A stretch of 55,679 nucleotides of DNA, filler included, from Jimgerdemannia flammicorona (GCA_003990765.1; 2 parts of 2 records of this genome joined end to end with filler, not necessarily neighbours in it), one strand, 5' to 3'; counted from the first letter of the whole stretch, positions 2,230-52,662 are shown. The notes: generated by a model from the sequence alone, not told the origin. Numbers and translations are program-made.

Positions 2230-5200
2230 TTACCAGTCTATGAATAAGTATACAATATCACCACCCACTAACCAATCCCCATCAGGGAGCCCCACCCCAC
2301 CTCTTCACATATAAAGACTACCCTCTTACTAACAACTCCAACTCTCCCACCACTCTGACCACAGATTTTCACCACCAAGCGGCACCTCCGACCCCCCTGC
2401 AGCCCCCAACCAAGCCACCAGCCTGTCAAGGTATTCTCCATAAGGAACTGCCACCTTGCTAACTGGCTCCCCAAGCTCTATCGCTTCTCCTCCTCAAATA
2501 CAAATAGCCAGTGACTGGCCAGCCCAACCCAAATAGCCAACGCCCAGCCTAGCGTAATCCACTCTTCCCCTACCCCTCCTATCAATCGATCCCTCAGGTC
2601 CTCCCACCTCTCCCGCACATCATCACCCCTACGCCTTACCCCTAAGCAGTCTCCAATGGCCTGCCAAAAGTCTCCCAACACCTCACACTCCCCTAGCCAA
2701 TATTCTGGCATCTGTACCAATCTCCCTTCCTGCCCTACATTATGGCACTCCTTGCAGTCAAAGCAGCTCCCGACAACAAGGTGTCCTGAGCGGAAGTTAA
2801 GCATCACATTCCTCCTCAGCACACGCCACCAGACTATCCAGTACTTCAGCGGCATCCAATTTTTCACTGCGGCACTCCAGGTCCAAACCCTATGCCAGTC
2901 CCACTCCTCACCAATTCCAACTCCTTGCCAACCACTAGGCCACAGATCCTGGCCTGGTCCCCTTTGGCATTTGATGCCATCACTAATGTTGAACTCCAGT
3001 AAAGGCATGCCTCCTAGAAGAATACTATCCTATCTCCACATCGCTGGGCCCCAAGCCCTCTCCCCCTCATCCCCTCGCCAGTAAATACCAATGTGGTGTG
3101 CCCCCTCAGCTATACCCCACCAGAAGCCTTTATATCTCAGTTGCACAGTATTCTGAAGCCCAACTAATGAAAGAAGATCACCAGTCAAGCCTCTAGGTGA
3201 TGTCCACCTCTCCCATATCTTCTGTAGCAAGGGGACCCAGCCCCCTCCATGCAACTCCACCGCCCTCCTCAGCCACCAAGCCCACAAGCAGTGTAGTCTT
3301 TTGGGGAAGTCCACCAGCCTAAGACCACCTCTTGCCACTGGTAGGGACAGAGTCTCCCAACCAATCTGACTCCGTCTGCCAGCCCAAATCCATCCCTTGG
3401 CCACCTTCACCAATCTCTTCACCACCCAGGCTGGGAAGTCCAGATGATAGGCCAAATACCACAGCTTCAGCAGCCAGTAAACATTCAAAATCAAGATCCT
3501 TCCTGCTAGAGAGAAGTGTTTACCCCCCCAACCCCACAGGTCCTCCTCCCAAATTTCAATCCTCTGCTCCCACCACAGTCTGGGCAAAACAGACCCATAG
3601 ACTGACAAATAGATGCCCAAGTACCGCACTGCCTCTCCGGTGGGGACAATTGTTCCAATAACTTCTCTACCCACCAAGCCATTGCCCAGCACCATTGTTT
3701 CACACTTATGCCAATTCAGCTTCACCCCAGAGTTCTCCTCATACCACTCCACTGTCTTCTGGAACTCCTCGACATCTGCAGTCACTCCCAAACCAACCAC
3801 CATATCATCCGCAAAGGCTCCAACCTTCCAGCCAACCCCATAGATAGAGAGCCCCACGATCCTCCGCTGAATCCTGTCCATGAGAGGTTCCAAGGAAAGA
3901 GCATACAAAATGGGGAACAGTGGGTCCCCCTGGGGCACTCCCCTACCCAGAGGGAATGCCACCCCTTGATACCCATTGCACATGAGCACAGCCCTACTCC
4001 TTTCCAGTAGGCTGACCATCGCTGACTGAAATGGGGCCAGAACTCCAATTCTATCTAATACTTTCGCCAGCCAGACTCGCCATACCCGGTCATAAGCCTT
4101 CTCCTGATCCAAGAAGACAAGATGCCCATCTAGTCCACAGGCTCGAGCACCTTTAATAACTCCATGTACCCAGGCTATGCCATCTCTAATGAGTCAACCC
4201 CCTATGAAGCCCCTCTGTTCAACACCCACAATTTGCTGGGCCACCTTCTGTAGCCTTGTGACCACCACCTTAGTCACCAACTTCCTGTCCATATCTAGTA
4301 ACATTATCGGCCGCCAGTTCTTCCAATCCTCTTGCCTTCCCTTGTTCTTATAAAGCAGTGTCACCAGCCCAAGATCTTGCTCCCCCACCCATCTCCCTGA
4401 CTGCAATATAGAGTCATATAGTGCTGTCAACTCCCCCAATATGCCCGGGACTCTAACCATTCGCTTCCAGAAGTCCCAGGGGAGACCATCCTCCCCAGGC
4501 GCCATACCCGAGGCTGTCGCGGCAAGAACCTGGTGGATCTCATCCTTCTTTACAGACATCACCAGGTCACCTAGTCCCTCAGCTTGTGGTGGGTGCCAAT
4601 CTTCTAATGTTTGGTCAATGGCTGTAGCATCTGCCCCACCCTCCTCCTCACTCCACAATCCACTCCATTATGCCTTCAGCATTCCAAGGATGTCCTGTAT
4701 ACCATGCACTAGTACATCATCTGAGTTAAGTACCCCTTCCTACCACTGCTGTACCCTTCTCACTCAAAGTGTCCTTGTGAGAAACTTGGAAGGCCTCTCC
4801 CCTTCCTCCACCCCCTGCCAATGAAGCTGTGCCACCAGGCCTTGCACCCTTGACTCTTCCTCTTCCCGCAGCACCTGTTGCAGTTCCCCAACCTCCATCC
4901 TCACCCTCATTATTCTCCAATCCTCTTCTCCCTCCACTGCTGCCAGTCTCGCCCACTCCTCCAGGAGCCTAGCCAATCTAGTAGAAGCCCAACGCACTTT
5001 CTGCCTTTGCTGCTTCCCAGCCACTCTGCCAACCTCACTCCAATACATCCTGGCCATCTCTTTCATCCTCATCCACTGAACCCCAATTGTGGCCCCTTCC
5101 TGCCACCAATTCACCACCTTCAGCTGAATATCTTTCGCCCACTCCTCCTACCAGGCCTCATCATTCAACAAGGAGGAATTCAGGTGCCAATGTCCAGGCC

Positions 5201-5924
5201 CATCTCTACTTCCCCCAAAATACCCCTGTCCCAAGAGGCCCCAGTGATCTGACCACGGACACCATTCTATCTCTATCACCTTCCAGACATTGTGGCCCCA
5301 ACAGTCAGCCATCAGAATCCAGTCAATCCTTGTCCCCAGACCTCCAGCCCAATGCGTATATACCCTCCTGTCCCCCCAGTGCTCCCTACCAGCATCCACC
5401 AGTACTCCTAGCCTTTCAACCTCCTCCCACGTCGCTAACCCCCCACTCCTGCTCTCCGCACCCCGTCTTCCATCAGTTCTATCCAGCTGTACATTCCGAA
5501 CCATATTGAAATCTCCTCCAAGCATATCCAACCCAGCTTCAGCAAGAATCCTACTCTCCAGGAGCCCCTTCACCCAATCCACACACTCCTCCCATATAGC
5601 AGGGCAGTAACAGGAGCCAACTGTGACTGGCTCCCAACCTGCTCGAATCCACTTACCCCAGACCAGTCTCTCTCCCCAGCTCCTCACATCCTTTATCTCC
5701 CCTCTGCCTTTCTGAACCAGAATCCCAACCTTGCTGTTCCAAATCGCCATACCACCCCATTTCTTAGTCTATTCCATCCTATCAGTATCATCCTCGCACC
5801 TGATATCCTGCAAGAGGAAGAGATCGGCCTCCAATCCCTTCAACCAAATAAAAATGTTCCTGTGTCTAACTATGCCCCTTAGCCCATTCACATTCAAAGA
5901 AAAAATGTTGGTTGTACTGTTCAT
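2230..5924 (-). pseudogene. LINE ORF2: APE endonuclease plus reverse transcriptase, with internal stops (3' end approximate)
   Basis: APE motifs IFSLNVNGL, LFLLQD, GGDFN, RIDWI, SDH; RT motifs APGEDGLP, NWRPIMLL, EQRGF, DQEKAYDRV, GVPQGDPL, AFADD, YLGI. Confidence 0.95.
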
Positions 5925-5943
5925 AATAAAATATGGTTTGTTC

Positions 5944-7985
5944 TCAATCAATCCCTACTGCTCCATGCCCCTCTCCTCCTGTGCCATGTCCAGATTATGT
6001 TCAGCCATCACCTCCTCCTCTTCAGCCCTCTGAGCCTCCAGTCCAGCCAACAGCTCATTCATCTCCTCATCAGCCTTCTCCTCAAACTCCTCTCGGTACT
6101 CAATGCAAGCCTCCTGCCAAAGCTACAACCCATGATGCCTGTTCCAACAGTACTCAACCTTCTCCCCAGCGACCACCGCCAACTCTGCCTCCCTCTCCTT
6201 ATCCACCTCATACCCTTCCTCCTCCAGATACACCATGAGAATTTCCGCCTTCAGTGCCATCGCCACTCCTTTCTCTTGCAAAATTCTCGTCTAGTGCTCG
6301 TCACCCATCCCATACAAGTCCACCTCCCCCAGCTCTTCTGCCACCAGGTTATTCATCATCCAGCACATCCAAAGTAGGTTCCCCACCTCCTTTCCACCAG
6401 GGGTCACTGGCCTCCCTCCATCCAGCATTGTGGTGTCCGCTCCCATACTTATATTCTCATCCCACACCTCCGGGACATCCACCAGTTCCTCCTCCCCTGC
6501 TGCCACTACTTGGTCCCCATCCAATGCCTCCGGAATACTGAATTTCACCTGCTGGGTCCCCAGCATCGTCACATCCTCCCCAGGCTTATTCCTGGAAGCC
6601 AGGCCATGCCTGATAAGAGGGGAAGGGGTGGGAGAGTTCTCCCAGACTTCATCCCAAACCTCCAAGATGCCATCAGCATATAGGTCACTAATCTTCACCT
6701 CCTTAGCCTTCTCTGACCCTGCCCCTTCGTTCCCACTCCTCTCACCAGCCCAGACACTCGCTCCGGCCCCTTCTGTATCTGTCTTCATACTCGTATCCTT
6801 CTGTGGTCCACCCCCCAGCTTAGCCAGCAGATCCTTCTGCCTCTTCTGCCTCTGAGCCCTTTCCCACTGCACCTTGTCCACTCGAATCCTCTTTCCATCC
6901 ATTACCTCCAGGAGCATTGACTCCTCGAAAGTCTTTCAGGCCTTAGCTCGCCGTTCCACAGCCCCATCCAGCTCCTCCAGCGCTTTCAATAAATCTTCCT
7001 CCTCTTCTTCACTTCCTTTCACTCACATCACCTTACACAGGAAAGTCCCCCAGACCAACACCGAAGGCCAGTCTCTTGTCTTCCCGGTAGCCTCTTTCCC
7101 AGCCAGCCAAATCCTCACATCCATATCCCTAGTTCTGAGTGTGGTCCCTTCCCAGACCCTGAATCTGATATCCACCACCTCTCCATACTCCGCCATGACA
7201 TCCTCCACTCTCTTCCTCGTCTCCATCACCGTCACCATGGGTACTCCTTTCACCAGCAGTTAGACCACCCTTGGATCCCATTTCAAACACCTCGCCATCG
7301 GAATACACACCTCCCCAACCACTAACCCAACCTTCAGTGCCTCCTCCAGTGGTTCCACCTTCTCAAATTCCACCTCCACCCCCTCCAGTCCCTTTAGAAA
7401 CTTCACCAAAGTCACTCCCGCCACCTGCTTAGCAATAAGCCCCAACACCATTTTTGCCATCACTGCTAAGCCCCAGAAGCACAGCATGACTGCGAACGCT
7501 GAGATCGACTTCTTGAGTAACGGAGCCACTGCCAGTCCCATTACACTATCTGCCAGGTCCCTGGGCCTCATGCCCTTCCCACTGCTTGGCTCATCATCAG
7601 CAGTCCCATCTAGATTTTTTTCCAGATCACCTGTCACACCCCCATCAGCAGTCCCCACCTCAGCCACTACCCCCCCAGCTCCACTCCTATGGCCCTCCAG
7701 AGAGGCACCCCCAAGAGGTTGCTGCCTGGAAGCTGCCATCAGTACCTTCCCCCCTCTCAGCCAGCTCTCCAGTCCAGCTCCCTGCCGACCCCTCTTCACC
7801 TTCTCCACAAAGCTCACCCTGCCAGACCCTTGACCTCCAGCTCTGCCCCCTCTTCCACCATGGCCCCCTGCCAGCAGGCCCCTCATACTTCCCCCCAAGC
7901 CGGGGCCTCTCCCTACTTGCTGCCATTCAAACGCTCCAGGGCCACCCTGCCTAGTATGCACCTCCGGATGCTCATTGGTCGCCAT
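5944..7985 (-). pseudogene. LINE ORF1 (RGG-rich N-terminus, RRM-like middle, coiled-coil C-terminus), broken by stops
   Basis: ORF pieces 7260-7985, 7023-7253 and 6291-6917 lie upstream of ORF2; same segments recur in the second copy at 31.2-33.25 kb; domain labels are inferred from composition. Confidence 0.8.
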
Positions 7986-8112
7986 GATACTAGTAGCTTT
8001 TCTCCAGAAACTATGTCAAAAGTGTTGCCAAAGGGTTGTGTAACCTGAATGTTACCGGAGAAAGATGCTGATAGTAAACCAATCTAAGGTAAAGAGGGTA
8101 AAAGTAGGAAAA

Positions 8113-11039: not shown

Positions 11040-11104
<65 letters not shown>

Positions 11105-16252: not shown

Positions 16253-16328
<76 letters not shown>

Positions 16329-18087: not shown

Positions 18088-18318
18088 GACTGAGATGGGT
18101 GACCATGACACGGGACGTAGCCTGACAACCGGCCAGGGCGTAGCCAGCCAGTTGCGTCATGGCAATGGAACGTAGCCTATTCAAGAGCTCCCGATTGAGG
18201 ACGTAGCTCACTCCCCAGCCAAGGCGTAGTCGGCCGGTTCCTCGGGGTTTGTCAACACGCCATATAACACGGAGTCATAATGGGACGTATTCTAGCCCTC
18301 GAACCACCCATCTCAGCC
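18088..18318 (-). ncRNA. Putative structured intronic RNA in intron 1 of gene A
   Basis: Perfect 12-bp inverted repeat CTGAGATGGGTG (18090-18101) / CACCCATCTCAG (18305-18316) enclosing six CUACG/AUACG motifs, most of them in short hairpins. Confidence 0.6.
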
Positions 18319-18575: not shown

Positions 18576-19751
18576 TTAGTTCGGTACTGTTAATTTCTGA
18601 GTTATGGCGTACATACAAAACCCATTTTTAGTTCGGCAAGATCAATTATCATTGACAAGAACGAAACTTGGGCATACAGCAAGTGACTCACCTCATCCGG
18701 GCTTGGGGCGTTTCCGCCGTTGCGATTTTTCTTTGTGCCCTGTAAATAATTTAAAATTTTATGCAGGTTCGCTGGGATAGGGAAAAAAGGACCGGCAAGT
18801 GTTTCGGGAACGTTTTATTCAAGAACAACCGAATACTATACCTCGTCTTCCTTGCTCGCGGCTATGGACTGCTTGCCGCTGGACGTCGCTTTGACCTTCG
18901 GCGTGTCCGAGTCGCTCTCCCATTCGTCAAGGTCACCGGTTATAGAAGAATTTTGCTTACCAGCCTTATACAAACACAAATCAATAGTTTCAAAAAAAAA
19001 AAAAAAAAAGAATAAAAAAAAAAAAAAAAAAAAAAAAAGGGGCATTAGAATCACTATATTGACGTCGGCAAATACGTTGTGTCATAGCACTCCTCTGACT
19101 AACCTTCTTTCGGTTCGCATAGCGGATTTCGATACTGTTCCAAAACTCGTCAACATCGAGGCATTTGACTCGATGATTCTATAAAGGAATTAATATGATA
19201 AAGGCGATCCAAAAAAAAAAAAAAAAAAAAAAAAAAAGGACTGACAAGGCAGACCACAACGGGATCTAATGAACGCCATAAGGTCAGGTGGCACGTAGGC
19301 ACCCGCCATAGTTGTGTGAGCATGTTGCCCCTTCTCGGGACTCTGGGGGGCCCCACCTCCGTAAGAGAGGCCGATCCGGCCAAGCTTGCGGACCATGATG
19401 GGATGACACCCTTAAAGTGGACGGCACGTAGGCATCCACCGTAATCATGGAAGTATATTTCCCCTTCTCGGGACTTAACAGGGCCCTCCATACTGCCTGC
19501 CAGCCGGTGACGCTTTAAATAAGAATACTCACCTGAAATTTCTGCAGCAAACGTTTAACGCCTTGCTTGACATTGTCCACTTCGTGTTCAACCATGAATT
19601 CAAGGCATTTGCGGAGAGCGAAGGCCTCAGACCGGAAATCGTAAGTAAAGTCGATTTGATTCTGTCGGTGGCGATAGAAGTCGAGAAACCTATAGTTCTC
19701 GGGCGAATTTTGTTGGAAGTACGCGTATGCACTCGCTAAAGCTGGTTCCAT
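18576..19751 (-). CDS. Orphan gene B, predicted ~161 aa, five exons, unknown function
   Basis: Exons 19533-19751, 19104-19178, 18842-18964, 18692-18739 and 18576-18596 with GT-AG phase-0 introns give an open frame (last exons less certain); exons 1-2 parallel gene A (YF..LD(F/Y)..R...F...E and N......V..FW.S). Confidence 0.65.
19239..19505 (-). ncRNA. Putative structured intronic RNA in intron 1 of gene B
   Basis: Closing stem GGCUGGCAGGCAG / CUGCCUUGUCAGUC followed by C and a 27-U tract; two colinear 64-nt repeats (19290-19353, 19423-19486) with compensatory changes. Confidence 0.65.
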
Positions 19752-19899
19752 CGTTCAAAGAGACGCGTCAAGTGATGTTTTTCACCTAAAATATTTTCCA
19801 ATCGGTGACGTCATCAGGATAGCGACGTGTGACAAGAAAGATATTAGTGGGTTTGAAGGTTATGAAGTTGGTGGTTTGAAGATGAAGGCGCTTGCGACA

Positions 19900-22400
19900 G
19901 AGTCAATGAACTAAAGGAAAACTTAAGCGAGAATTACCAGAAGTAACTCAAGAACCGAGGAAAAAACGAAAATATCAGAAGAGTAGAATATTGTACGGGT
20001 ATATATAGGAGTAACTTCGTGTATTCTTTAAAATGTTCTTGTAGAAGAAATTGCATATGGTAAACAATAAAAACATGAATGAATACAAGAAAGCTCTCTA
20101 TTTTTTAGATGTAGGCTGGTTGCAGTTGCTTCGCCAAGGTTCCCAAGCTCTAACAAGACATTTTTTTGATGGCATAGCTCCATGGTAATATCAAAAGAAT
20201 GCCTAAGTGAAAAACCAAGATGTTTATTGATATTAACGTGACTACCTTAAGCTATGCCGAAGTCCCAGTCTAGTGAGAAATGATTGTGTGACTCTTTTTA
20301 CCTGCTACAAAACTGTTCACGTGATTTTTTAGCAGGCCTAGAAGAAGATAGCTTTTTTTTTTTTTTTTTTTTTTTTTTAACAGACTCATAGTTCCATGGA
20401 TTTTTATTGGAAGAGAACCTAGACTATATAGGCCAAAACCCTCCCCCACTACCTACTGAACAATATCTCCCCATTAACCTAGGCTACTAAATTGTCCAGT
20501 AGTTCTACTGCTCCAGCTATGCCTATCAAACACTAGCTACATTGACTCCTATGATATAGACCAGACTTGTCTGCTCACCAGGACTGGATCATCATTTATA
20601 TATAAGAGCACACCTATACGTCAGATCTAGCAGTACTAGGACTAAATAAAGAATAGTCCTTTAAACCCCAAAAGAAAGCCTAAGGTAAAGAAAAAACCCC
20701 CCAACCAACTAATAGAGAGCAAAGTGGATTCAAAGTGGGTGAGTAAAGGACTTACATGTAGAACCTTCTACAAAGGACTTACATATGGGCTAGGGCCAGA
20801 AAAGACCCCACTCCTACTCTCTGAGCCTGTGGGCCTTGATTACATTACCATATCAGCTCCTGGTTTTAGTCAGATACTGTTAAATGAGGAAGACCCCACT
20901 CTCTAAGTCTGCGGGCCTCAATTGTATTACTACATCAGCTTCTAGTTTCAGTTGAGTACAGCCAGGATACCAGCCCCTACACTACCCCACCCTCTACCAG
21001 CCAATTGAAAGGCCCCACCAAAATATTGTCTGCCCCAGCCCCAATGATCACCTCCAGCCTAGCACCCCACTGATTCACTATTATCACCCTTCCTCCTATC
21101 TATGATGGCCATCTCCTCTCCCATCTCAATAATACCCAAAAAACAGTCACCTATGCCAAAACTATGCTCGCTGAGAAGCTCGCCAAAGCCAGAGGACCCC
21201 ACCACAGATACTAAGAACTTGCAGATAACCTATACTGAGCACTTGATACCCAAGATTGGCCAACTCTCTACATAGCCCAAGATATATCAAAACAATACCA
21301 TATTGGTGATAGCAAAAGGAAGAAGATGCTGCATCAAAACAATATACTCCAGATGTAGCCAAAGATACCAGAAACTACAAAAAAGTAGAGAAGACACTGA
21401 TCTGATACCAATAAAAGGACAACTCATCACCATTGCCCTCCTCCCACTATGCCCATACAGGTATAGCAAACCAACCTAAGGTAGAGGAGATAATAATAGG
21501 GGAAAGGAGACTTGGAAGGTTGCCTACCAAATCTTGTAACTAATAAGGTAGCAGAGAAAGGAGCTAACTTGTAGAAGAAGATAGCACTTTGTATGTCCTG
21601 AAATATGATATGTTCCACAAATTATAGTATCAGCTAACTCTATATATTTAAATCAAGAGCCTCTAAACTGATTTATGTAATATTTATCAGAGCTTATAGA
21701 ATGACTTGCAATTTAAAGCTCATAAAGAGAAAGAGATTTAAGATAAATAAAGATCACCTAACCAAAGTCAAATTAGAATAAAACTATTATAATAGAAATA
21801 CCAAATTGATGAAAGAGCTAAGAAAACTTATTAACTAGAATTATTCTATACTGAAAGATGAGATATTATTCTACAGTATCAATACAGTTACCTATTATAG
21901 TTATAACTGAGCTTAAAATATCTATATATCTTATTTAGATTAATAGATTAATAAAATATATTATCTTAGTACTCATAAAGTATATTTGTTTAGTATCTAA
22001 GATAAAGCTATATATGAGCAAATTAATTATATATTCAATAAGTATGAACTTTTTAGAAAAGGTTCAAATAGTATACTTAGTCTAGTTTTTAATAGAATTA
22101 AATAATTAAATAAAAATAAAAGTTATCTATAATAATATAGGTAGATAAAACAAAAATAATACCACTCTTTAGTTTTACCCATATCTGATAATTGCTAAAT
22201 ATTATAAAACTATTAAGTTTAATTTTATAGTTCTGGACTATATTAAAGTTAAATATAATTACAGTTTTGGTCTAATTAAAAGGCTTTATTACAAAACTAT
22301 AGTAGATTATATAGATTATATTACAGATATAGTAAAAAGATCTAACATTATCAGATTAATAAAGCTTTATTAGGAAAAAAAACTTCAGTTTATATTTACT
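19900..22400 (+). pseudogene. Decayed Sola-like DDD transposase (DNCxGQNKN type), split by an X insertion
   Basis: Degenerate motifs after reverting transitions: HGN..R.P, P.TDLC..C (~21660), YSYD.AQN, INY..DE.E...KG.N, DN.GGQNKNN (~22130-22160), F.VPGH.K..CD..FG.IK; boundaries approximate. Confidence 0.6.
20353..21571 (-). mobile_element. Element X, full-length variant copy with internal duplications
   Basis: PolyT 20353-20378; perfect TSD TAGAAGAAGATAGC at 20339-20352 and 21572-21585. Confidence 0.92.
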
Positions 22401-25200: not shown

Positions 25201-25242
<42 letters not shown>

Positions 25243-27896: not shown

Positions 27897-30800
27897 ACCA
27901 TCTCTCCTATACACTACCTCCAAACAATCCCCAACAGCCCACCAAAAGTCACTAAGTACCTCACACTCTCCTAGCCAATATTCAGGTATCTGTACATATC
28001 CCTCTTCCTGCTCTACATTGTGGCACTCCTTACAGTTGAAGCAACTCCCCTTGATAAGGTGATCTAAGCAGAAGTTGAGCATTACATTCCTTCTCAGTAT
28101 GTGTGACCAGACCACCAGTACTTTAGCAGTATCCACCTCTGCACCTCAGTACTCTAGACCCAAATACTATGCCAGTTCCACTCTTCTCTAATACCCACTT
28201 CCTGCTATCTACTAGGCCACAGATCCTGGTCTGGTTCTCTTTGGCATTCTATCTCATCATTAATGTTGAACTCAATTAAGAAAACACCTCCTAGTAACAC
28301 TCAGTCTCATCTCTACATCACTGGATCCCAAGCTACCTCCTCTTCAATTTCCTGCCAATGAATTCCAATGCAGTGCACCCCCTCTACTACCCTCCACCAG
28401 AAGCCTTTGTATCACAATTGTTCAGTGTTTTGAAGTCCAACCAATGATAGGAGATCTCTTGTTGAGCCTCTTGATAAGGACCTTATCTCTCAAACCTTCT
28501 GCAATAGGGGGACTCAACTGCCCCCTCTCAACTCCACTGCTCTCTTTAACCACCATACTCTCAAGCAGTATAGCCTCTTCAGAAAGTCAACCAGCCCAAG
28601 TCCTTCTCTTGCCACTGGTAAGGATAAGACCTCCCAACTGATCTAATTCCTTCTTCCAGCCTAGATCCACCTCTTGGCCAGCTTTATCAATCTCTTCACC
28701 ACCCAGGCTGGGAAGTTCAGATGATAAGCCAGATACCATAACTTTGGTAGCCAATAGATGTTCAAAATTGAGACATGCCCCATCAGAGATAAGTGGTGAC
28801 CCCCCTAACTCTGCAGGGCCTCCCCCCAGATACCAACCCTCTGCTTCCACCAAAGTCTGGATAGTACTGACCCATATACTGACAAATAAATACCCAAGTA
28901 CTGCACTACCTCACCAATAGGGACAATTGTTCCAATAACATCCCCTCTCACCAGGCTATTGCCTAATACCATTATTTCACACTTTTGCCAATTGAGTTTA
29001 GCCCCAGAGTTCTCCTCATATCACTCTACTGTCTCCTTAAGCTCCTCAATATCAGCAACCAATCCCAGGCCAACCACCATATTATCTACAAAGGCCCCAA
29101 CTTTCCACCCAATTCTAAAGATAGAGAGCCTGACTATCTTCCACCTGATTCTATCTATTAGGAGTTCTAGGAAAAGAGCATATAGAATGGAAGATAGTAG
29201 GTCCCCCTGGGGCACACCCCTACCCAGGGGAAATAATACCCCTCTATGTCCATTATATATGAGTGCAGCCCTACTTCCTTCCAGTAGGCTGATCATTGCT
29301 GACCAGAACTGGTGCAGTACCTCAGTCTTATCTAATACTTTCACCAGCCAGACTTGCCACACTCAGTCATAAGCCTTTTCCTGGTCCAAAAAGACCAGTT
29401 GTCCATCCAGTCCACAAGCTTGTGTCTCTTCAATAATGCCATATATGTACCTAGGCTATGCTATCTCTAATGAGCTGGCCTCCTACAAATCCCCTCTGCT
29501 CAATACCCAAAACTTGCTGGGCCACCTTCTGTAGCCTTGTGACCACTATCTTAGTCACTAACTTTCTGTCCATGTCTAGTAGCATAATCAGCTGCCAGTT
29601 CTTCCAGTCCTCTCACCTTCCTTTATTCTTGTAAAGTAATACCACTAGCCCCAGATCCTGCTCCCCCACCCATCTTCCTATCTATAGTATAAAATCACAC
29701 AATGCTATCATCTCACCCAATACTTCTGGGACTTCTATCATCTTCTTCCAGAAGTCCCAGAGTAGACCATCCTCTCCAGGTACCATATCTGGCATTGTCA
29801 CAGCAAAAATCTGGAGGATCTCTTCCTCTTGTACTGGTAACATCAAGTCATCCAGCCCATCTACTTGTAGAGGGTACCAATCCTCTAATGCCTAGTTAAT
29901 GACAGCAGCATCAGCCCTACCCTCCTCCTTACTCCATAATCTACTCCATTGCTCCTTTAATAATCCAAGAATATCTTGTATACCATGTATCAGTATATCA
30001 TCAGAGTCAATACTCCCTCTCATCTTTACTATACTCTTCTCACCTAAAGGGCCCTCATGAGGTACTTTGAGGGCCTCTCTCCTTCCTCCAAACCCTACCA
30101 ATGAAGCCATGCCACCAAGCTCTACACCCTTGTCTCTTTCTCTTCCTGCAACACCTATTGTAATTCTCCAACCTCTATTTTTGCCCTCATTAATCTCCAA
30201 TCCTCTTCCCCCTCTAATATCACTAGCCCTGCCCAATCTTCCAAGAGTCTAGCCAGTCTAACAGAAGCCCATCTCACCTATCACCTCCTCTGCTTCTCAG
30301 CCTCCTTGCCAGCCTCACTCTAGTAGACCCTGATCATCTCTTTCATCCTCATCTACTGAACACTAACTGGGGTACCTTTCTGCCTCCAGATCTCTACCCT
30401 CAGTTGAATGTCTTCAGCCCACTCATCTCATCAGATCCAATCATCTAATAAAGAGGAATTGAGATGCCAATATCCAGGCCCATCCCCACTCCCTCCAAAA
30501 TGCCCCTGTCCTAACAGCCTCCAATAATCTGACCATAGATACCATTCCACCTCTAGCAACTTCCAAACATCCAAACCCCAGTAGCTAGCTATCAAAATCC
30601 AGTCAATTCTCATCCCCAGGCCCTCTGCCTAATGTGTGTATATTCTCCTATCTCTCCAACACTCCCTACCAGCATTTACCAGAGCACTTAGCCTTTTCAC
30701 TTCCTCTTATACCACCAGTCCTCTACTCCTACTCTCAGCTCTCTATCCTTCATCTGTTCTATTCATTAGTATATCTCAGACCATATTGAAGTCTCCACCA

Positions 30801-33334
30801 AGCATATCCACCCCAGTCTCTATAAGGATCCCACTCTCCTGGAGATTCTTCACCCAGTCTACATACTCATCCTGTACAGCAGAGCAGTAACAAGAGCCTA
30901 CTGTGACTAGCTCCCAACCTGTATGTATCCACTCTCCTCAGACCAATCTATCTCTCTAGCTCCTCATATCCTATATCTCCCCTCTGCCTTTCTGGACCAG
31001 AATCCCAATCTTGCCCTTCTAAACTGCCTCATCTCCCCATTCTTTCATCCATTCTAGCCTATCTAAATCATCCTCACATCTGATATCCTACAAGAGAAAG
31101 AGATCAGCCTCCAATCTCTTCAGCCAAGTAAAAATGTTCCTATATTGAGAAGTGCCCTGTAATCCATTCATATTCAAAGAAAAAATGTTGGTTGTACTAT
31201 TCATAATGAAATATAGTATATTATCAAGTTTATCCCTACTGCTCTATATTCATCTCTTCCTGCACTATGTCTGCAGTCACCTCCTCCTCTTCAGCCCTCT
31301 GAGCCTCCAATCCAGCCAATAGCTCATTCATCTCTCCATCTGCCTTCTCCTCAAACTCCTTCTGGTACTCTAGGCAGGCCTCCTGCTAGAGCTGCAATCT
31401 ATGATGCTTGGTTCAGTAGTATTTAGCCCTCTCACCAGTGACATCTGCCAGCTCTGTCTCCCACTCCTTATTCACCTCATACCCTTTCTCCTCTAGATAT
31501 ATTATAAGGATTTCCACCTTCAATGCTATCACCACTCTATCCTCTTGTAAGATCTATACCCAATGCTCATTGCTCATTACTCTCAGATCCACCTCCTCTA
31601 ACTCTTCAGCTGCCAGATTATTCATCATCCTATATATCCAAAGTAGGTTCCCCACCTCCTTCTCTTCAGAAGTTACTGGCCTCTCTCCATCCAGCATCAT
31701 GATATTAGCCCTGGTACTTGCAGACTCATTCTACACCTCTGGGACATCCACCAGTTCCTCCTCTCCAACTGCCACTACTTGTTCTCTATTTGCTATCTCT
31801 GAAACTCCAAATTGTACTCACTGGGTCTCCCACATTGATATATTCTCTACTACCCTGCTTCGGGAAGTCAGACCTCATCTGATAAGAGGAGTAGAGGTAG
31901 GCAAGTCCTCCCAGGCCTCCTCCCAGACCTCAAATGTACCATCAGTATATGAGTTATTACTAGTCACCTCCCTGTCCTCTCCTGTCTCCTTTCCTGCACT
32001 CCTGCTACCCTCACTGGTCCAGACACTTGCTTTGGCCCCCCCATCTTCACCATTCTACCTGCATCCTTCTGTGATCTACCTTCCAGCTTAACCAGCAGCT
32101 CCTTCTGTCTCTTATGTCTCTGAGCTCTTTCCCACTACCCCTTATCTACTCGAATCCACCTCCCATCCACCACCTCTAAGTGTATCAACTCTACAAAAGT
32201 CTTCCAAGCCTTCATCTACTGCTCTATAGTACTACTTAGCTCTTTCAGTGCTTCCAATAAGTCCTCTTCCTCCTCCTCACTCCCCTTTACTCTCATTACC
32301 TTATATAAGATCACTCTCTAGACCATTCCTGAAGGCCAGTCCCTTGTCTTCCTAGTAGCTTTCTTCTCTGCTAGCTGAATTCTCACATCAACATTCCCAG
32401 TTCTAAGCAAGGTCTCTTCCCAGATTCTGAATCTGATATCTACCACCTCTTCATACTCTGCCATAACCTCCTCGACTCTTCTTCTTATCTCTACTGCTAT
32501 CACTATAAGCACTCCTTTTACCAGCAGTTGTATTACCCTGAGATCTCATCTTAGACAATGTATCATTAGAACACATATCTCCCCAACAGTCAATCCAACC
32601 TTCAGTACCTTCTCCAAAGGCCTAGCCTCCTCAAAGTCTACCTCTACTCTCTCCAATCCCTTCAGAAACTTTACTAATACTGTCTCAGTCACCTGCTTAG
32701 CAATATGCCCTAGCACTATTTTTGCCATCACTACAAGGCCCTAGAAGTACAATATAACTATGAATGCTGAGATTGATTTTTTGAGTAACAGGACCACCAC
32801 CAGACCTATCACACCATCTGCCAAACCCCTCTACCTTCCAAGCCCCAGTCACTCAACTATGCTATCAGCAGCCACATCTGGATTTTTTTCCAGATTGGCA
32901 GTTCCATCACTATCAGCCATTATACTCACCCCAGCTACTATACCCCCAGCTCCACTGCCTCTACTGCCAAGGGCTACTCTCCCATATACTACTATCTTTT
33001 CCATCTCCTTACCTTTCCTCAGCCATCTCTCTAGCCCAGATAACCTGCTATCTTCTCTTCACCATTTCTGCAAAGCTCATCCTCCCAGACTCCTGTCCTC
33101 TACCACTATCTCCTCCCCTTCCATGTCCTCTCACCAGCAGTCCCCTCATATCCCCCCCCAGTCTAGAGCCTCTCCCTACATACTGCCAGTCAAATGTGCT
33201 TGAGCTATCCTACCTAGTATACATCTCAGATTACCTATCAGTTACCATGTTGCTAGTCTCTTTTCTCCAAAAACAATGTTGTAAGTACTTTCTAAAGATT
33301 GTATAATCCAAATGGTACCAGAGAAAGGTATCTG
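27897..33334 (-). mobile_element. Second, more eroded copy of the L1/Tx1-like LINE (3' end lost in gap)
   Basis: Colinear with 2600-8070: GVPQGD, AFVDN, RIDWILIA, SDY, ORF1 segments; the 5' end abuts X sequence. Confidence 0.92.
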
Positions 33335-46896: not shown

Positions 46897-47372
46897 TGTG
46901 ACAGTACAGCCAGATTTGGAAGAAGGAAATAGGGAATAGACACTTGATCATACTCATTCCCAAAGTAGTATAGCATTATAGTTAGCAGTCCTCGATTCCA
47001 ACATTGTCTAATTTCTTAGACATTGTCTAAATTTTAGACATTATCCAAATCGAATACTCTGATTTAGTATAGTCTTTAGATATTGTCCAAATGTTTTGAC
47101 AAAGTCCAAATGACTCATTTATTACTTAGCCACTCTCTCATAGCTAGCAAACTTGTATAAATAACCCAGTATCTTCAAGTGAATAAACCTCAGATCGAAA
47201 TAGTTCAAAGCAAAGAGATAGCAAAGGAACTAGTAAGCCTGTGGGCAGATACACTTCGAACTCACCCACCCTCCCCTGCAACTTCAAGAGACTCTGTGAG
47301 AGTCAGAACAGTCAAGTTTTCAAGATACAGAAATCTGACGTACTTTCAAGAGTAAGCGTCTGCTATGTTACA
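46897..47372 (+). repeat. 5' LTR
   Basis: TGTGAC...GTTACA, 476 bp, direct repeat of 53151-53626. Confidence 0.97.
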
Positions 47373-47375
47373 ACT

Positions 47376-47393
47376 TGGTGCCCATTGGCTGGT
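47376..47393 (+). promoter_or_regulatory. Putative primer-binding site
   Basis: TGGTGCCCATTGG... begins 3 nt after the 5' LTR; primer tRNA not identified. Confidence 0.7.
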
Positions 47394-47486
47394 GATTCAA
47401 GACGAATCCCTCACTTTCAAGCTGAACAACAAACAACCACCACTACCCGAACAACCATACAAACCAAGCCCCAATACCCAGACAAG

Positions 47487-50400
47487 ATGGATATGAGACT
47501 GCCAGTATTCCATGGATATACTTCAGATGAATCAATCATCACCTTCATTGATGATTTCAAGCAGTATGCTGCTGTAAGGACTCTGACAGCAGCACAGCAA
47601 GTAGCCCTCATGTCCTTCAGCCTACAAGGCCCTGCCAGAGCAGCATTTACAGCCGCAACCTATGCAGGAAATGATGACGATGCCATACTGACGGCATAGA
47701 AGACCTGGCTCCGAAACACATATTACACAGATGAGATCAAGCAAGCCCTGAAGGATCAGCTCAATACAATGTGCCAAGGAATGAGTGAGGATCCAAACAT
47801 ATTCTATACTAGAATTTGATATCAGATAATCCTTGCAGATTATGCTGCTGCTACCCGAGATCAAGTAGCTGAAGCAATCTTCATGAAAGGAGTCCATCCA
47901 GAAATAGCCATGGCCATCCACTCATCACCAGTGATTCTGGATCTGCTACAAAGAGTCACCTATGCTCAGCGATACTGGATAGCCAGACACCCACAAGACC
48001 ATACAATGGAGAGAGTTACAGAAGTCAGAATTGAGGCACCCAAGGCAACTAGCATGATCCCCACTACAATGATCAATCAAAACACACCTCAGCCAAAAGC
48101 TACTGAGCAGCAAAAGAACAGCGACCCTATGGAGGAACTTGCCAAAAGGTTTGCCAAAATGACTGCCCACCTGGGAGATGTGGTAAAGGAAATTCGAGGA
48201 AGAGATTGCCACCCTGTTCAGAAGTTTGCCGCCACCTCAGACAAGAAGAAAGGTACCTGCTACAGCTGCGGAGAAGAAGGCCACTACTCCTATAAATGCA
48301 TGAGCAAAACCAAGCGCAAGGCTCAACCAAGCAATGCGACATGAAACAAGGAGTAGGCCAATATAATTACCTTCAAGGAGATCGGAGATTCTGATGAAGA
48401 AGAATGGGAGGCCTATCCTGCTCAGACCACCAAGAAGGATGTTTGCAAAGAACCCTATAAGAGACCGCCAGGAAGACCCAAGAATCCAGTGGAAAAACAG
48501 ATGGAAACTGTCACAGAAAGTCAAGCCGAAGAGATAGACCAAGATATCGAGCTGGAGCAAGCAGTTCAAGATATCATCCGAGAAACCACTCCAGCCAGTG
48601 AAGGAGAAAAAGAAAAGAAGCTTCGCAAGACCAAGACCTTCAAGTATGATATCTTCAAGGATCTCAGTCAACAAAAGGTCAATGCAACCTTTGGTCAGCT
48701 CGCAGAAATCCCAACATTCAGACAGCAAATGAGGTTTGGACTTGCCGAAACAACCAAGGAACAAGGATGGAAGATAACTGAGGCCAATAATGTTCAAGAG
48801 GACTCAGGAGAAGAAAGTGAGAATAATCGCAAAACCTCTGCTTATGTAATATGCCAAATTGAGGATCGAGTCTTTGAAGCCACCATTGACACAGGAGCAG
48901 GAGGATGTCTCCTCAGTAAGAAAGCAGCAGACTGCCTAGGTTGAAATGTGGAAGAAGCAACTAAGCTAGTATTCATCACAGCCGATAGCACAAGAGCTAC
49001 ACCTCTGGGAAAGATCCGAGATGTTCCCATCAAGATTGGAGGAGTAACAATCCCAGTAGATGTAATCGTAACCAATGCCACCAACTATGACATCCTCATC
49101 GGCAATCAATGGCTTCACAAAGCCAAGGCGGTAATCGATCTCAATGCCCAGAAGATGCAAATCACCTACCGAGAACAGAAGATATGAATTCCCATCAATG
49201 TCAACAAAGGAGTCCTGCCCGATATGGAGGAAGAAGAGAGCGAGCAAGAGAAAGCTTATATGGTGACTACCGCAAAGAAGAAGAAAGTCGGATGGATGAG
49301 TGAAGAAGAATGGTGCAATAAGATCGCAGAAGGTTATGCCCTACAAGGAGTCTGTCCTCATGGAATCAAGATGTACTATATGGAGCATGTCAATGATTGC
49401 TACCAGTGCACCATCAGAACCAGGAAGATCTACCAGGAAAGAAGTCAGAAAGCTCTCGAAAAACAGATCAGAGAAGAAGAGAAGGAGGAAGATGATGAAC
49501 CACCAGCCCTCCTGGAGGACAGTGATGATGAAGAAGAAATCAAGGTCAAGATTCGAAAAATCCACCCTGATGTAGTCTTGCCGGAATATAAGTCAGAAAA
49601 TGCAGCCGGAATGGACATCGCTACAGTAGAAGAAACTGTACTGGAACCCCAGACAACCACCCTACTCGCGACTGGACTGGAGATGACCATCCCAAAGGAT
49701 CATGTCGGGATTCTCAAGACAAGAAGTAGCTTGGCTAGAAGCGAAATTACAATCGAAGGAGGAGTCATCGATTCAGACTATACTGGAGAAATTCTACTCA
49801 TTGCTAGGAACCACAATCCTACAATTCCATTCCCAGTCAAGAAGAAGGACTGATTGGCACAGATGTTGATCTTCCCAATCATACAGCCAAGGATCATAGA
49901 AGTCAAGAATCTAGAGGAAATGAAAAGAGGAAAGAAAGGATTTGGATCCACAGGAAGAGGAGTATTTGCCAGCACCAAGATCACCGAACTCGAGCATAAG
50001 AAGGAGGAAAACATGAGCAAGCACAGTTACACCATTGGAAACGAATTCCCACTCAAGGAGGAACTCAAGAAAATACTCCACAAATTTGAGGATGTCCTTG
50101 CCATGGATTTCAAGGATATCAAGAGAAAGACCCCACACTACTATCACGAGGTAGATACTGGAGACACCGAACCAATTTACCAGAAAGCAAGACCTGTCCT
50201 GCCAGCCTACCGAGAATGGCTTAGAGAAGAAATCAAGCAGATGGAAGAAGCCGGCATCATCAAAGAAGCCAGTAGCCCCTGGTCTTCACCAGTTGTACTA
50301 GCCCCGAAAAAAGGAAGCAAACCTGGAGAATTTGCCCCAAGGCTCTGTGTCGACTACAGAAAGCTTAATGCAGTCACCAAGAAGGATCGCCAACCACTGC

Positions 50401-51476
50401 CGCTCATTAGCGATATCCTTATAACACTAGGAGACGAAGCACAGTACTACAGCACCTTGGACTTATACTCAGGATTCCACCAAATCGGACTCATGGAAAT
50501 GGCAAGTGAAAAGTTAGCCTTCATCACCCCAGACAGAACCTACATCTACCTATGAATGCCATTCGGAATGTGCAATGCACCAGCAAGCTTTTAGTGAATG
50601 ATGAACAAAATATTCCACTATGACATGGGAAGATGGATGATGGTCTATGTCGATGATGTAATCATCTATAGCAAGACAGCTGAGGAATATCTGCAGCACA
50701 TACAGTAGATAATGGAGAGACTAAGACAACATGGCCTTTATATCAAACCCAAGAAGTGCAAGTTTGCGAAAATCAAGATCTCCTATCTTGGCCATATCAT
50801 CAATCGAGATGGAACACACATGGACCCCCTCAAGATACAAGCGGTAGTAGCATACCTAAGGCCCACTACCGTCACAGAAGCCCAAGCCTTCATGGGACTT
50901 GCCTCCTACTATCGCAGATTCATTAGAGGATTCTCCAACATTGCAGGCCCAATCTACGAACTCAACAAGAAGGATACCAAGTTCCAGTGGACTGGCAGAC
51001 AACAAAAAGCATTTGATGAACTCAAGGTCAGACTAACTCAGGCACCCATCCTTAGATGACCTAATTGGACCCAAGAATTTATCCTTTAGATGGATGCAAG
51101 CGCATAGAGACTAGGAGCAGTCCTAGCTCAAAAAGAAGACAAAAAGGAGTATGTTATTGCATATCTTAGCCGCGGAACCCGAGGGGCTGAAAAAGAATAT
51201 GAGTCCTACAAGTTGGAATGCCTTGCAGTCATCTGGGCTGTGGAAAAGTTCCACTACTATCTGGCTGGAAGACACTTCACCATCCAGATGGACCACTCAG
51301 CTCTCACCTGGCTACTGACAACTGGACAACCCAAGGGAATTTATGCCAGATGGATAATGAAGTTACAAGCCTATGATGTAACCATCATGCACCGCCCTGG
51401 AAGAACAAATTCCAATGCAGATACTCTCTCACAGATATCTCGAACTACCTCCAACCAACAAATCAATCATGAATAA
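47487..51476 (+). pseudogene. Single-frame gag-PR-dUTPase-RT-RNaseH polyprotein with more than a dozen nonsense mutations
   Basis: CYSCGEEGHYSYKC knuckle; IDTGA protease; dUTPase motifs AAGMDI, RSSLA, GGVIDSDYTGEI, AQML, RGKKGFGSTG; RT SPWSSPV, RLCVDYRKLN, YVDD; RNase H DAS, ECLAVIWAV, DHSAL; all pieces in one frame. Confidence 0.95.
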
Positions 51477-52662
51477 GGAGCTCTACTACGGAATCATCAC
51501 ATATCTGAGACAGCGAAAGATGCCCCAACATCTGGAAGAATGGACACAAACGATTATCAACAGGACATGGAAATAATTCGAAACCGATGGAGAAACACTG
51601 AAGAAAGAAAAACTACTAGTCATACCAGAACATAAGAAGGAGCAAGTGATGAAATCAGTACATGAACTTGGCCACCTAGGAGGAACAAACACACATGACA
51701 AGGCAAGAAGAACAATATGGTGGCCAGGAATGGAGGAAGATATCAGACAATTCGTTAAAACATACAACAAATGCCAGAAACAGAAACAAGACCAACGAAA
51801 TCAAGCCTCAGGATCAGCACACATAGAACCAGTACCATTCGCCCACATTGCAATGGATGTAATCGGCCCTCTACCCTTGACCCTGACTGGTAACCGATAC
51901 ATCATTGTCATCGTAGACCTTTTTACGAAGTGGATAGAAGCAGGACCTCTCAAGGAAGCCAATGCACAGTCAATCGCTGATTTCTTCCACAAGGAAATCA
52001 TCTGCTGGTTCAAGACCCCAATACAAGTAACTACAGATAGAGGAACCAAATTTGTGAACCAGTTCTTCGAAGTTCTCTACAAGAAGTACAAGATTCAGCA
52101 CATTCAGACCACAGCCTATCACCCTCAAGGAAATGGACAAGTAGAAAGGACCAACAAGACCCTCAAGAATGTTATTGCCAAGATCTGTGATAACTACAAG
52201 AACTGGGATCACTATCTGCCAATAGCATTATCTGCTCTCTGGGATATCTGATCACAAAGCACCCACTTTACCCCTTGAGAAATGCTGTTCAGAGAAGAAT
52301 ATTCTCAAGGAACCCTATCATCCAATAGAGACGCCGTATGGAAACATGTAGACATAGAGATACAGAGACTACACCAAATCAGGAAGAAGGCTGAGAATTA
52401 CATAACCAAGACACAGACACTACAACAGAGGAATGCGGAAAAAATCCACAAGCCCTTGGAGATTATCAAGATAGGAGACAAGGTCCTGGTGTATTGGAAC
52501 ATGGTAGAAGCTTCATGGTCACGAAAACTGGAGCCCAAGTGGGAAGGACCTTACCTTGTGCAAGATATAAAAGGGACCACCTTTTGGCTACGAAAACCCT
52601 CAGGCACCATAATCCCCACCACCATTCACCGAAACCGACTCAAGAAATATCATGGCCAGTAA
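51469..52662 (+). pseudogene. Integrase ORF (HHCC, DDE, GPY), separate frame
   Basis: ATG 51469; HELGHLG, WWPGM, MDVIGPLP, TDRG, YHPQGNGQVERTN, WEGPY; three internal stops. Confidence 0.92.

Follow-up and report, generated by a model that had tools for sequence, protein, structure and literature searches.

A conserved structured RNA element in the first intron of one gene family of plant-symbiotic, early-diverging fungi

Here, we describe an RNA element in intron 1 of a gene of Jimgerdemannia flammicorona (Endogonales, Mucoromycota), which was found in a stretch of 55,679 nucleotides of this genome, filler included (GCA_003990765.1; referred to as the window). We are highly confident that this is a structured RNA element, that three paralogues of this fungus, Endogone sp. 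and two orders of Glomeromycetes carry it in the same intron of the gene family, that it is better conserved than the neighbouring exon and that its helices have undergone compensatory changes. We conclude that the element is a new, ancient, structured intronic RNA without a match among the described RNA families.

Results

The element is located in a spliced intron

A sequence-only reading of the window had placed two repeats within an intron, and the RNA contigs agree with this: a contig from run X1 connects positions 19178 and 19533 directly and leaves out 354 nt, whose borders are GT..AG on the minus strand. The ends of the intron can be read as GTGAGT at 19532 and TATAG at 19179. The parts of the host gene that are needed here are:

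19533..19751, minus strand: host gene exon 1, with 73 codons counted from the ATG and 49% identity to the N-terminus of the Entrophospora protein P0010
19179..19532, minus strand: first intron of the host gene, 354 nt long with GT..AG ends (CT..AC on the plus strand), contains the whole element, defined by the joint in the X1 contig
19103..19178, minus strand: exon 2 of the host gene, with joints 19178 to 19533 and 18963 to 19103

Altogether, the X1 contigs contain three splice joints, all of which are GT..AG on the minus strand. One X1 contig is spliced across intron 1 and another one is unspliced and extends from the intron into exon 1 (19248-19562); introns 3 and 4 are without cover in this run. 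A 253-nt contig from RNA library X2 lies entirely within intron 1 (19271-19523), and the exons have no X2 cover. Run X3, which we guess to be DNA, covers only 19248-19393. The contig depths (in X1, 8.65 for the unspliced and 23.9 for the spliced contig; in X4, 25.7 for the element of a paralogue) cannot rank the intron against the exons, because all runs are available as contigs, which provide neither ratios nor ends. Several different loose-ended contigs in X1 and X4 match exons 3 and 4 (18692-18750 and 18841-18926), which fits a multi-member gene family whose members share these short exons.

The deposited model of the host gene codes for 281 aa and translates the element as an exon, a model that the RNA joint does not support. 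Over its last exon, the host protein is 100% identical to a public record from a member of the Endogonales, Mucoromycota. No Pfam family, no usable Atlas match and no recognisable RNA-binding or other domain was found for the host protein, and the AlphaFold model of exon 1 is helical with low confidence (pLDDT 68).

The element consists of two related units

The two 64-nt repeats that had been noticed in the intron are present as described: a repeat search returned them at 19290-19353 and 19423-19486, 75% identical and 133 nt apart from start to start, and the letters quoted for them are correct when the minus strand is read. The 14-mer GTCCCGAGAAGGGG occurs twice in the 55.7 kb, with no further occurrence at up to 2 mismatches, as compared to an expectation of 0.16, and none of 100 shuffles contained it twice. 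Similarly, the 12-mer TGCCTACGTGCC has two exact occurrences in the window, and the three matches found for it at up to 2 mismatches are not unusual (18 of 100 shuffles). A gapped alignment revealed that the homology exceeds 64 nt and comprises two head-to-tail units of about 133 nt, A (19516-19381) and B (19388-19245). The 64-nt repeats are thus the cores of two modules of about 133 nt, which belong to one folded RNA element:

19381..19516, minus strand: unit A, about 133 nt, the 5' member of the tandem pair (alignment A1; 126.8 bits with covariance model R1)
19245..19388, minus strand: unit B, about 133-140 nt, the 3' copy, whole in Glomeromycotina (alignment A1; 165.3 bits with R1)

As the 133-nt period cannot be divided by 3, units A and B are read in different frames. 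When the whole window was searched with R1, only these two units were recovered, and the next match scored 14.6 bits.

Predicted fold of the element

According to minimum free energy (MFE) folds and the alignment of the two units, the element is predicted to contain the following parts:

19239..19505, minus strand: structured element with P0, unit A, linker hairpin and unit B; MFE of 19238-19507, -109.5 kcal/mol, z -1.73
19493..19505, minus strand: P0, 5' strand, GGCUGGCAGGCAG, paired with 19239-19252 in MFE folds
19239..19252, minus strand: P0, 3' strand, CUGCC-U-UGUCAGUC, from MFE folds
19449..19489, minus strand: P2A, GGAGG (19485-19489) with CUUCC (19449-19453), encloses HpA and a large conserved internal loop
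19461..19474, minus strand: hairpin HpA, UCCC / GAGAA / GGGG
19393..19450, minus strand: P3A, CCAUGAU (19444-19450) with AUCAUGG (19393-19399), closes P4A and P5A
19416..19440, minus strand: hairpin P4A, GGUGGAUG / loop CCUACGUGC / CGUCCACU; -10.9 kcal/mol, z -2.29, reached by 5 of 200 shuffles
19358..19392, minus strand: linker hairpin between the units, from MFE folds, poorly conserved between paralogues
19316..19356, minus strand: P2B, GUGGG (19352-19356) with CUCAC (19316-19320), encloses HpB
19328..19341, minus strand: hairpin HpB, UCCC / GAGAA / GGGG; C-G to U.G in X3_B and Entrophospora (columns 52-58)
19255..19316, minus strand: P3B, CACAAC (19311-19316) with GUUGUG (19255-19260), closes P4B and P5B
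19282..19307, minus strand: hairpin P4B, GGCGGGUG / loop CCUACGUGC / CACCUG(A)CC; -11.1 kcal/mol, z -1.91, reached by 7 of 200 shuffles

Each module is predicted to be an extended hairpin, made of P2 and the GAGAA-capped CCC/GGG stem, followed by a three-way junction in which P3 closes P4 and a small P5. The 13-bp helix P0 joins both ends and thereby closes the whole element, and all changes within it in the Jf2/Lgn and X3 back-translations are, by eye, compatible with pairing. Between the two units, P2 carries two both-sided changes (columns 33-37/69-73), P3 three and P4, a helix of 8 bp with a 9-nt loop, two. A strand compatible with CUNCC is kept in both Glomeromycotina copies despite their differing linkers (by eye), and an X4 contig has 119 unlike letters in place of 19344-19460 of the window. 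As an alternative to P2A and P2B, the MFE folds also offer a long-range GGGCCC/GGGCCC helix. The thermodynamic signals of single sequences are modest, with z values of -1.09 for the intron, -1.73 for the element and -0.96 and +0.23 for 81-nt units.

Several further ideas about the fold were dropped. The two 9-nt loops could kiss, since UACGUG, UGCGCG, UGYGUN and UACNUA are self-complementary when G-U pairs are allowed, but this property mostly survives transitions anyway, and such a hairpin is present just once in the Glomeromycotina copies. The strand CUCAC of P2B could sequester GUGAG of the 5' splice site, but in the back-translations of paralogues 2 and 3 the intron starts with GCN and this pairing is not kept. 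A possible resemblance between the UAUGG strands at the junctions and a tetraloop receptor was dropped as well.

Homologues in two fungal phyla

To find homologues, the open frame of the element was translated (P0002) and protein databases were searched. The search with P0002 returned P0003 and P0004 (two of three candidates), a search of 1.84 billion representatives with the translated element returned five proteins (P0001, P0005, P0003, P0006 and P0004), and a search with P0007 contributed nine of 218 candidates. Assigned by their source names, the records are:

P0005: orthologue in a second J. flammicorona strain
P0006 and P0008: two paralogues in the same genome
P0007: Endogone sp. FLAS-F59071
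P0004: Acaulospora colombiana
P0010 and P0011: Entrophospora sp. SA101
P0003 and P0009: two further records, of which P0009 is a Logan ORF

The public accessions are RUS34302.1, RUS31243.1, RUP17349.1, RUS12441.1, CAG8558593.1, BC938DRAFT_481433 of J. flammicorona and two records of Entrophospora sp. SA101. The carriers are therefore three J. flammicorona paralogues, Endogone sp., Acaulospora colombiana and Entrophospora sp.; Acaulospora and Entrophospora represent two orders of Glomeromycetes and belong to a different phylum than Jimgerdemannia (NCBI). In all models, the element is flanked by a part resembling exon 1 (..YRFLGYYQ.R...DF..) and a part resembling exon 2 (NHR.K..D.NQFW), so that in all 11 records found by this protein-based and hence biased search the element occupies one intron of one gene family. 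The homologues are known as protein translations alone, and copies with stop codons or with a correctly annotated intron escape such a search; the restriction to one gene family may therefore be an ascertainment effect. The same position across the gene family indicates vertical descent.

A contig of run X4 fits the paralogues by eye. It differs from the window at 19293 (A>G), at 19296 (T>C) and by two missing bases at 19321, which fits the translation of paralogue 2, and its loose end fits the start of the intron as translated in paralogue 3. The similarity to a paralogous locus starts at 19504 (X4 record 12), about 28 nt after the 5' splice site. In the paralogues P0008 and P0009, an ORF continues in frame from exon 1 into the intron, and in P0009 up to exon 2. 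Their intron appears to start with GCN instead of GU, hinting at a 5' splice site that is weak or of the GC-AG type and at a retained intron that could be translated.

Conservation of the element at the nucleotide level

In both Glomeromycotina copies, unit B is better conserved than exon 1, as counted over the bases that can be determined by back-translation:

Acaulospora against the window: unit B 60/62 (97%), exon 1 35/47 (74%)
Entrophospora against the window: unit B 58/63 (92%), exon 1 57/80 (71%)

When the element of the window is read in frame 2, it matches P0003 and P0004; in frame 1 it matches P0010 (E 1e-12) and in frame 0 unit A of P0006 (E 2e-6), and within P0004 the frame switches in mid-unit. 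As the same nucleotides are read in different frames by different models, the conservation lies in the nucleotides and not in a peptide.

The copies differ in their modules and in length, with 267 nt for the Endogonales form and 170 nt for the Glomeromycotina form. Units A and B are present in the Endogonales copies, whereas both Glomeromycotina copies contain the 5' half of A (P0 strand, P2A and HpA), a short linker and a complete unit B, and lack the 3' arm of A. The BC936 strain has a 12-nt deletion in HpA, and about 13 nt of unit B are absent from the Logan ORF P0009. The losses in a given copy thus affect either A or B and not both units, which suggests that the modules may be partly redundant.

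Covariation between two sequences alone would have been weak evidence for the fold. RNAalifold predicts 33 pairs for the two units (alignment A1), 8 of which have changes on both sides, a number that is reached by 0.8% of 500 column shuffles that keep the conservation class of each column (mean 3.45). The consensus energy has a z value of -2.04 in sense orientation (reached by 2% of the shuffles) and of -0.68 for the reverse complement, and the G-U pairs fit the sense strand of the gene only. We then scored this fold, which is derived from the window's own units, in eight back-translated units, whose third codon positions are degenerate: of 264 cells, 36 are gaps, 83 are definitely paired, 141 are possible pairs and 4 are definitely broken. 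With 4 broken cells in 228, as compared to 46-65 after a shift of the 3' partners by 1-3 columns, these further copies fit the consensus fold. Among ten units, seven pairs have definite both-sided changes. Columns 78-129 form a U-A pair in unit A of the window, whereas paralogues 2 and 3 have C-G at this place in their unit A; as this change took place within A-type units, the compensatory event is later than the duplication of A and B. The CCC/GGG stem has changed from C-G to U.G in two lineages.

These results change the picture given by the sequence-only reading in part. Its central claim, selection on RNA structure in an intron, is supported by the 8 both-sided changes, the 4 broken cells in 228 and the conservation of the element beyond that of the exon, and it now stands more firmly than could be seen from the sequence of the window alone. 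The compensatory changes had been assigned to two 4-bp stems, GAGU/GCUC and UGGC/GCCA. These two stems are probably not the right helices: the former competes with P2, which is better supported, and the latter with the 8-bp hairpin P4, which has more covariation, and X3_B breaks one pair of the latter stem (columns 84-97, M-A). The loops, said to be invariant, are so within the window but not in the homologues, where GGGAR and NAARM also occur in place of GAGAA and three positions of the 9-nt loop vary. Our results show that the element is a structured RNA under strong purifying selection, which is tied to one intron of one gene family.

Comparison with known RNA families

No Rfam 15 family matches at the gathering threshold in the whole window. 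At E values of up to 10, three chance-level matches were found within 18900-19800, namely MicX (17.3 bits against a threshold of 75), PyrR209 (15 against 42) and CrcZ (13.6 against 95), and the TPP riboswitch matches neither at the gathering score nor at E up to 10. None of the self-cleaving ribozyme families in Rfam (hammerhead, twister, HDV-like and others) matches, a hammerhead core CUGANGA is absent at up to 1 mismatch, and ARAGORN found no tRNA. We also considered snoRNAs. For a box C/D snoRNA, one C-like box (RUGAUGA with 1 mismatch; 19448, in P3A) and one CUGA (19287, in P4B) are available, but they are 161 nt apart in different units, and the C-like box is absent from unit B and from the other copies. 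For a box H/ACA snoRNA, the sole internal ANANNA (ACACAA, 19317) is part of the P2B/P3B strands, an internal pocket is absent from P4, and ACA occurs only at 19315-19325 and not near any 3' end. Both candidates were rejected.

Searches outside the window were similarly negative. A strict two-motif pattern had no match in a metagenome scan, and a looser pattern matched at least 120 loci, all of which, among the matches listed, are explained by chance (best blastn score 26.8 bits, best R1 score 17.1 bits). One metagenome contig, Ga0070738_10108127 (L010), contains many copies of a motif like AGTCCCGAGAAGGGG, about 75 nt apart; the contig is bacterial and the copies resemble a repeat array, for which R1 (12.9 bits) indicates no relation to the fungal element. 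Four degenerate patterns had 0, 0, 2 and 0 matches in prokaryote genomes and viral contigs, and the two matches are actinobacterial MAGs without an R1 match. In the partly accessible literature, no description of such an element in Endogonales or Glomeromycotina was found.

Discussion

The element defines a new RNA family with a testable structure, which is of a known general kind, that is a conserved structured intronic RNA, but has an unusual depth of conservation: its carriers come from two phyla of plant-symbiotic, early-diverging fungi. To our knowledge, conserved structured elements other than snoRNAs are very rare in fungal introns, and the TPP riboswitch is the textbook case. It consists of a conserved RNA domain in a spliceosomal intron of thiamine-biosynthesis genes, and no other riboswitch class is known in eukaryotes. 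Like the fungal TPP riboswitch (see PMC11683625), the element is a conserved self-folding intronic domain near the 5' splice site, which is tied to particular host genes over large distances. In contrast to it, the element contains two GAGAA-capped hairpins and one or two three-way junctions and has no Rfam TPP match. With intron-encoded snoRNAs it shares the sense orientation within the intron, a conservation that is much higher than that of the host exons and a terminal helix; it differs from them by the lack of a box arrangement or Rfam snoRNA match, by its size of 170-270 nt with an internal duplication, and by its presence in every paralogue of one family. In yeast, introns take part in the autoregulation of ribosomal protein genes. 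End-pairing within an intron, as described for RPS17B (PMC2536676), is comparable to P0, which brings the region past the 5' splice site near the 3' part, and in both cases the element is specific for its host gene. The yeast examples are short helices or single protein-binding motifs, whereas the element described here is far larger, contains conserved loops and junctions and is found across phyla.

We tentatively propose that the element acts in cis on its own pre-mRNA; taken as a whole, with this mechanism included, our statement is an open bet that we would not yet defend as the probable outcome. To this end, the folded domain would begin 28 nt past the 5' splice site, and P0 would loop out most of intron 1. 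The conserved loops and internal loops would bind a factor, either a protein, possibly the product of the host gene itself, or a small ligand, and the bound factor would set the efficiency with which intron 1 is removed. This proposal draws on the confinement of all copies found to one intron of one family, on the presence of both a spliced and an unspliced contig in X1 and on the X2 contig within the intron. Several observations speak against such a role. A sequence conserved at 92-97% over about 110 nt would rather be expected of a trans-acting RNP RNA than of a structure that controls splicing, the host protein has no recognisable RNA-binding domain, the single-sequence thermodynamic signals are modest, and the unspliced X1 contig could derive from DNA in the run. 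The main rival is a stable RNA that is derived from the excised intron and acts in trans, such as an orphan snoRNA-like RNP RNA or another stable intronic RNA, for which the host gene would be just a carrier. The far better conservation of the element than of the host exon is usual for intron-encoded small RNAs, the closing helix P0 could protect the ends of the element, and the X2 RNA-library contig is wholly intronic. On the other hand, there is no box C/D or H/ACA layout and no Rfam family at threshold, and all copies found reside in one intron of one family, with each paralogue keeping its own copy, which counts against a trans-acting RNA, as such an RNA would not need this. We regard a trans-acting RNA as rather doubtful, and improbable would be the fitting word for a more far-reaching model, in which the element is an autonomous sensor RNA of a new eukaryotic riboswitch-like or ribozyme-like class. 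Here, the GAGAA hairpins would dock on the three-way junctions, a metabolite or protein would decide on splicing, and the element would predate the split of Mucoromycota and Glomeromycota.

Two readings without an RNA function were also considered. The element could be a neutral relic of a local tandem duplication or of a mobile or introner-like element, with an incidental structure. Its ends form an imperfect inverted repeat, like the termini of MITEs, the window is transposon-rich, and a paralogous locus has the element in a different 5' context. Moreover, introner-like elements with stable predicted structures are reported (PMC3609843), and the present element shares with them the long intron, the stable predicted structure and the occurrence at more than one locus. 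Introner-like elements occupy hundreds of unrelated genes, whereas the element described here is found in the same intron of paralogues and orthologues, has its splice sites outside the conserved unit and is ancient and under purifying selection with no recent burst. The 11 records of our biased, protein-based search place it in one intron of one family, with the similarity starting about 28 nt past the 5' splice site and thus excluding the splice sites. In addition, its conservation between two phyla exceeds that of the coding exon, compensatory changes are present, no other copy exists in the 55.7 kb or among the at least 120 metagenome loci scored with R1, and none was confirmed in prokaryote or viral collections. 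The element is therefore unlikely to be an introner or a MITE, and a neutral origin of its structure in general seems very improbable to us. Just as hard to credit is a protein-coding, possibly alternative exon with a tandemly repeated peptide, as in the deposited models. One minus-strand frame indeed remains without a stop over 134 codons across the element, the element is translated in at least eight public models (P0001, P0004-P0008, P0010 and P0011), and the ORF of P0009 spans exon 1, the entire intron and the beginning of exon 2. However, the RNA contig skips 19179-19532 and with it the whole element, the period of 133 breaks the frame, the frames of the models differ without a conserved peptide, reading on from exon 1 of the window gene meets a stop after 5 codons, and there is no Pfam family. 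That only open copies were found follows from the search having been run through protein databases.

A structured RNA, tentatively acting in cis, thus remains our preferred reading, and it has consequences for public annotation, since at least eight deposited models (P0001, P0004, P0005, P0006, P0007, P0008, P0010 and P0011) carry a non-coding insert of about 55-100 residues in mixed frames, which is corrected here. It also provides a practical method, as a non-coding element can be traced via protein databases where gene callers have mistranslated it.

Other features of the window

A direct repeat of 17 nt, 88% identical, is present at 18783-18799 and 19232-19248; written as RNA, the copy in intron 3 is CUUGCCGGUCCUUUUUU and the one at the element's 3' end is CUUGUCAGUCCUUUUUU. 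The repeat may be due to chance. A poly-U tract after the element was considered as a Pol III terminator and dismissed, as long A/T runs are common throughout the window: thirteen homopolymer runs of A or T with lengths of 12-72 nt were counted, for example at 11041-11103, 16253-16324, 20353-20378 and 25204-25239. The T runs at 16253 and 20353 are each followed by AACAGACTCA and are probably copies of one repeat.

The window is eukaryotic, and its transposon content is visible from LINE-like and gypsy-like ORFs. The long ORFs at 2478-8015, 28890-33306 and 47187-52251 resemble a reverse transcriptase of the LINE type and gag, protease, RT and integrase of the gypsy type, and the GC skew is strongly negative over 2-8 kb and 28-34 kb.

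After the stop codon of the host gene, five CUACG motifs are found within 114 nt on the minus strand (18116-18229), 23-32 nt apart and in the context RRCUACGYYC. A link between them and the element was rejected, as the A within the loop motif is not conserved in homologues. On the plus strand, CGTAG occurs 16 times in the window, with 6 occurrences in the 1-kb bin that contains the CUACG motifs. The fold of this region is not unusual (z -0.42), and a 93%-similar X1 contig keeps four of the five motifs by eye.
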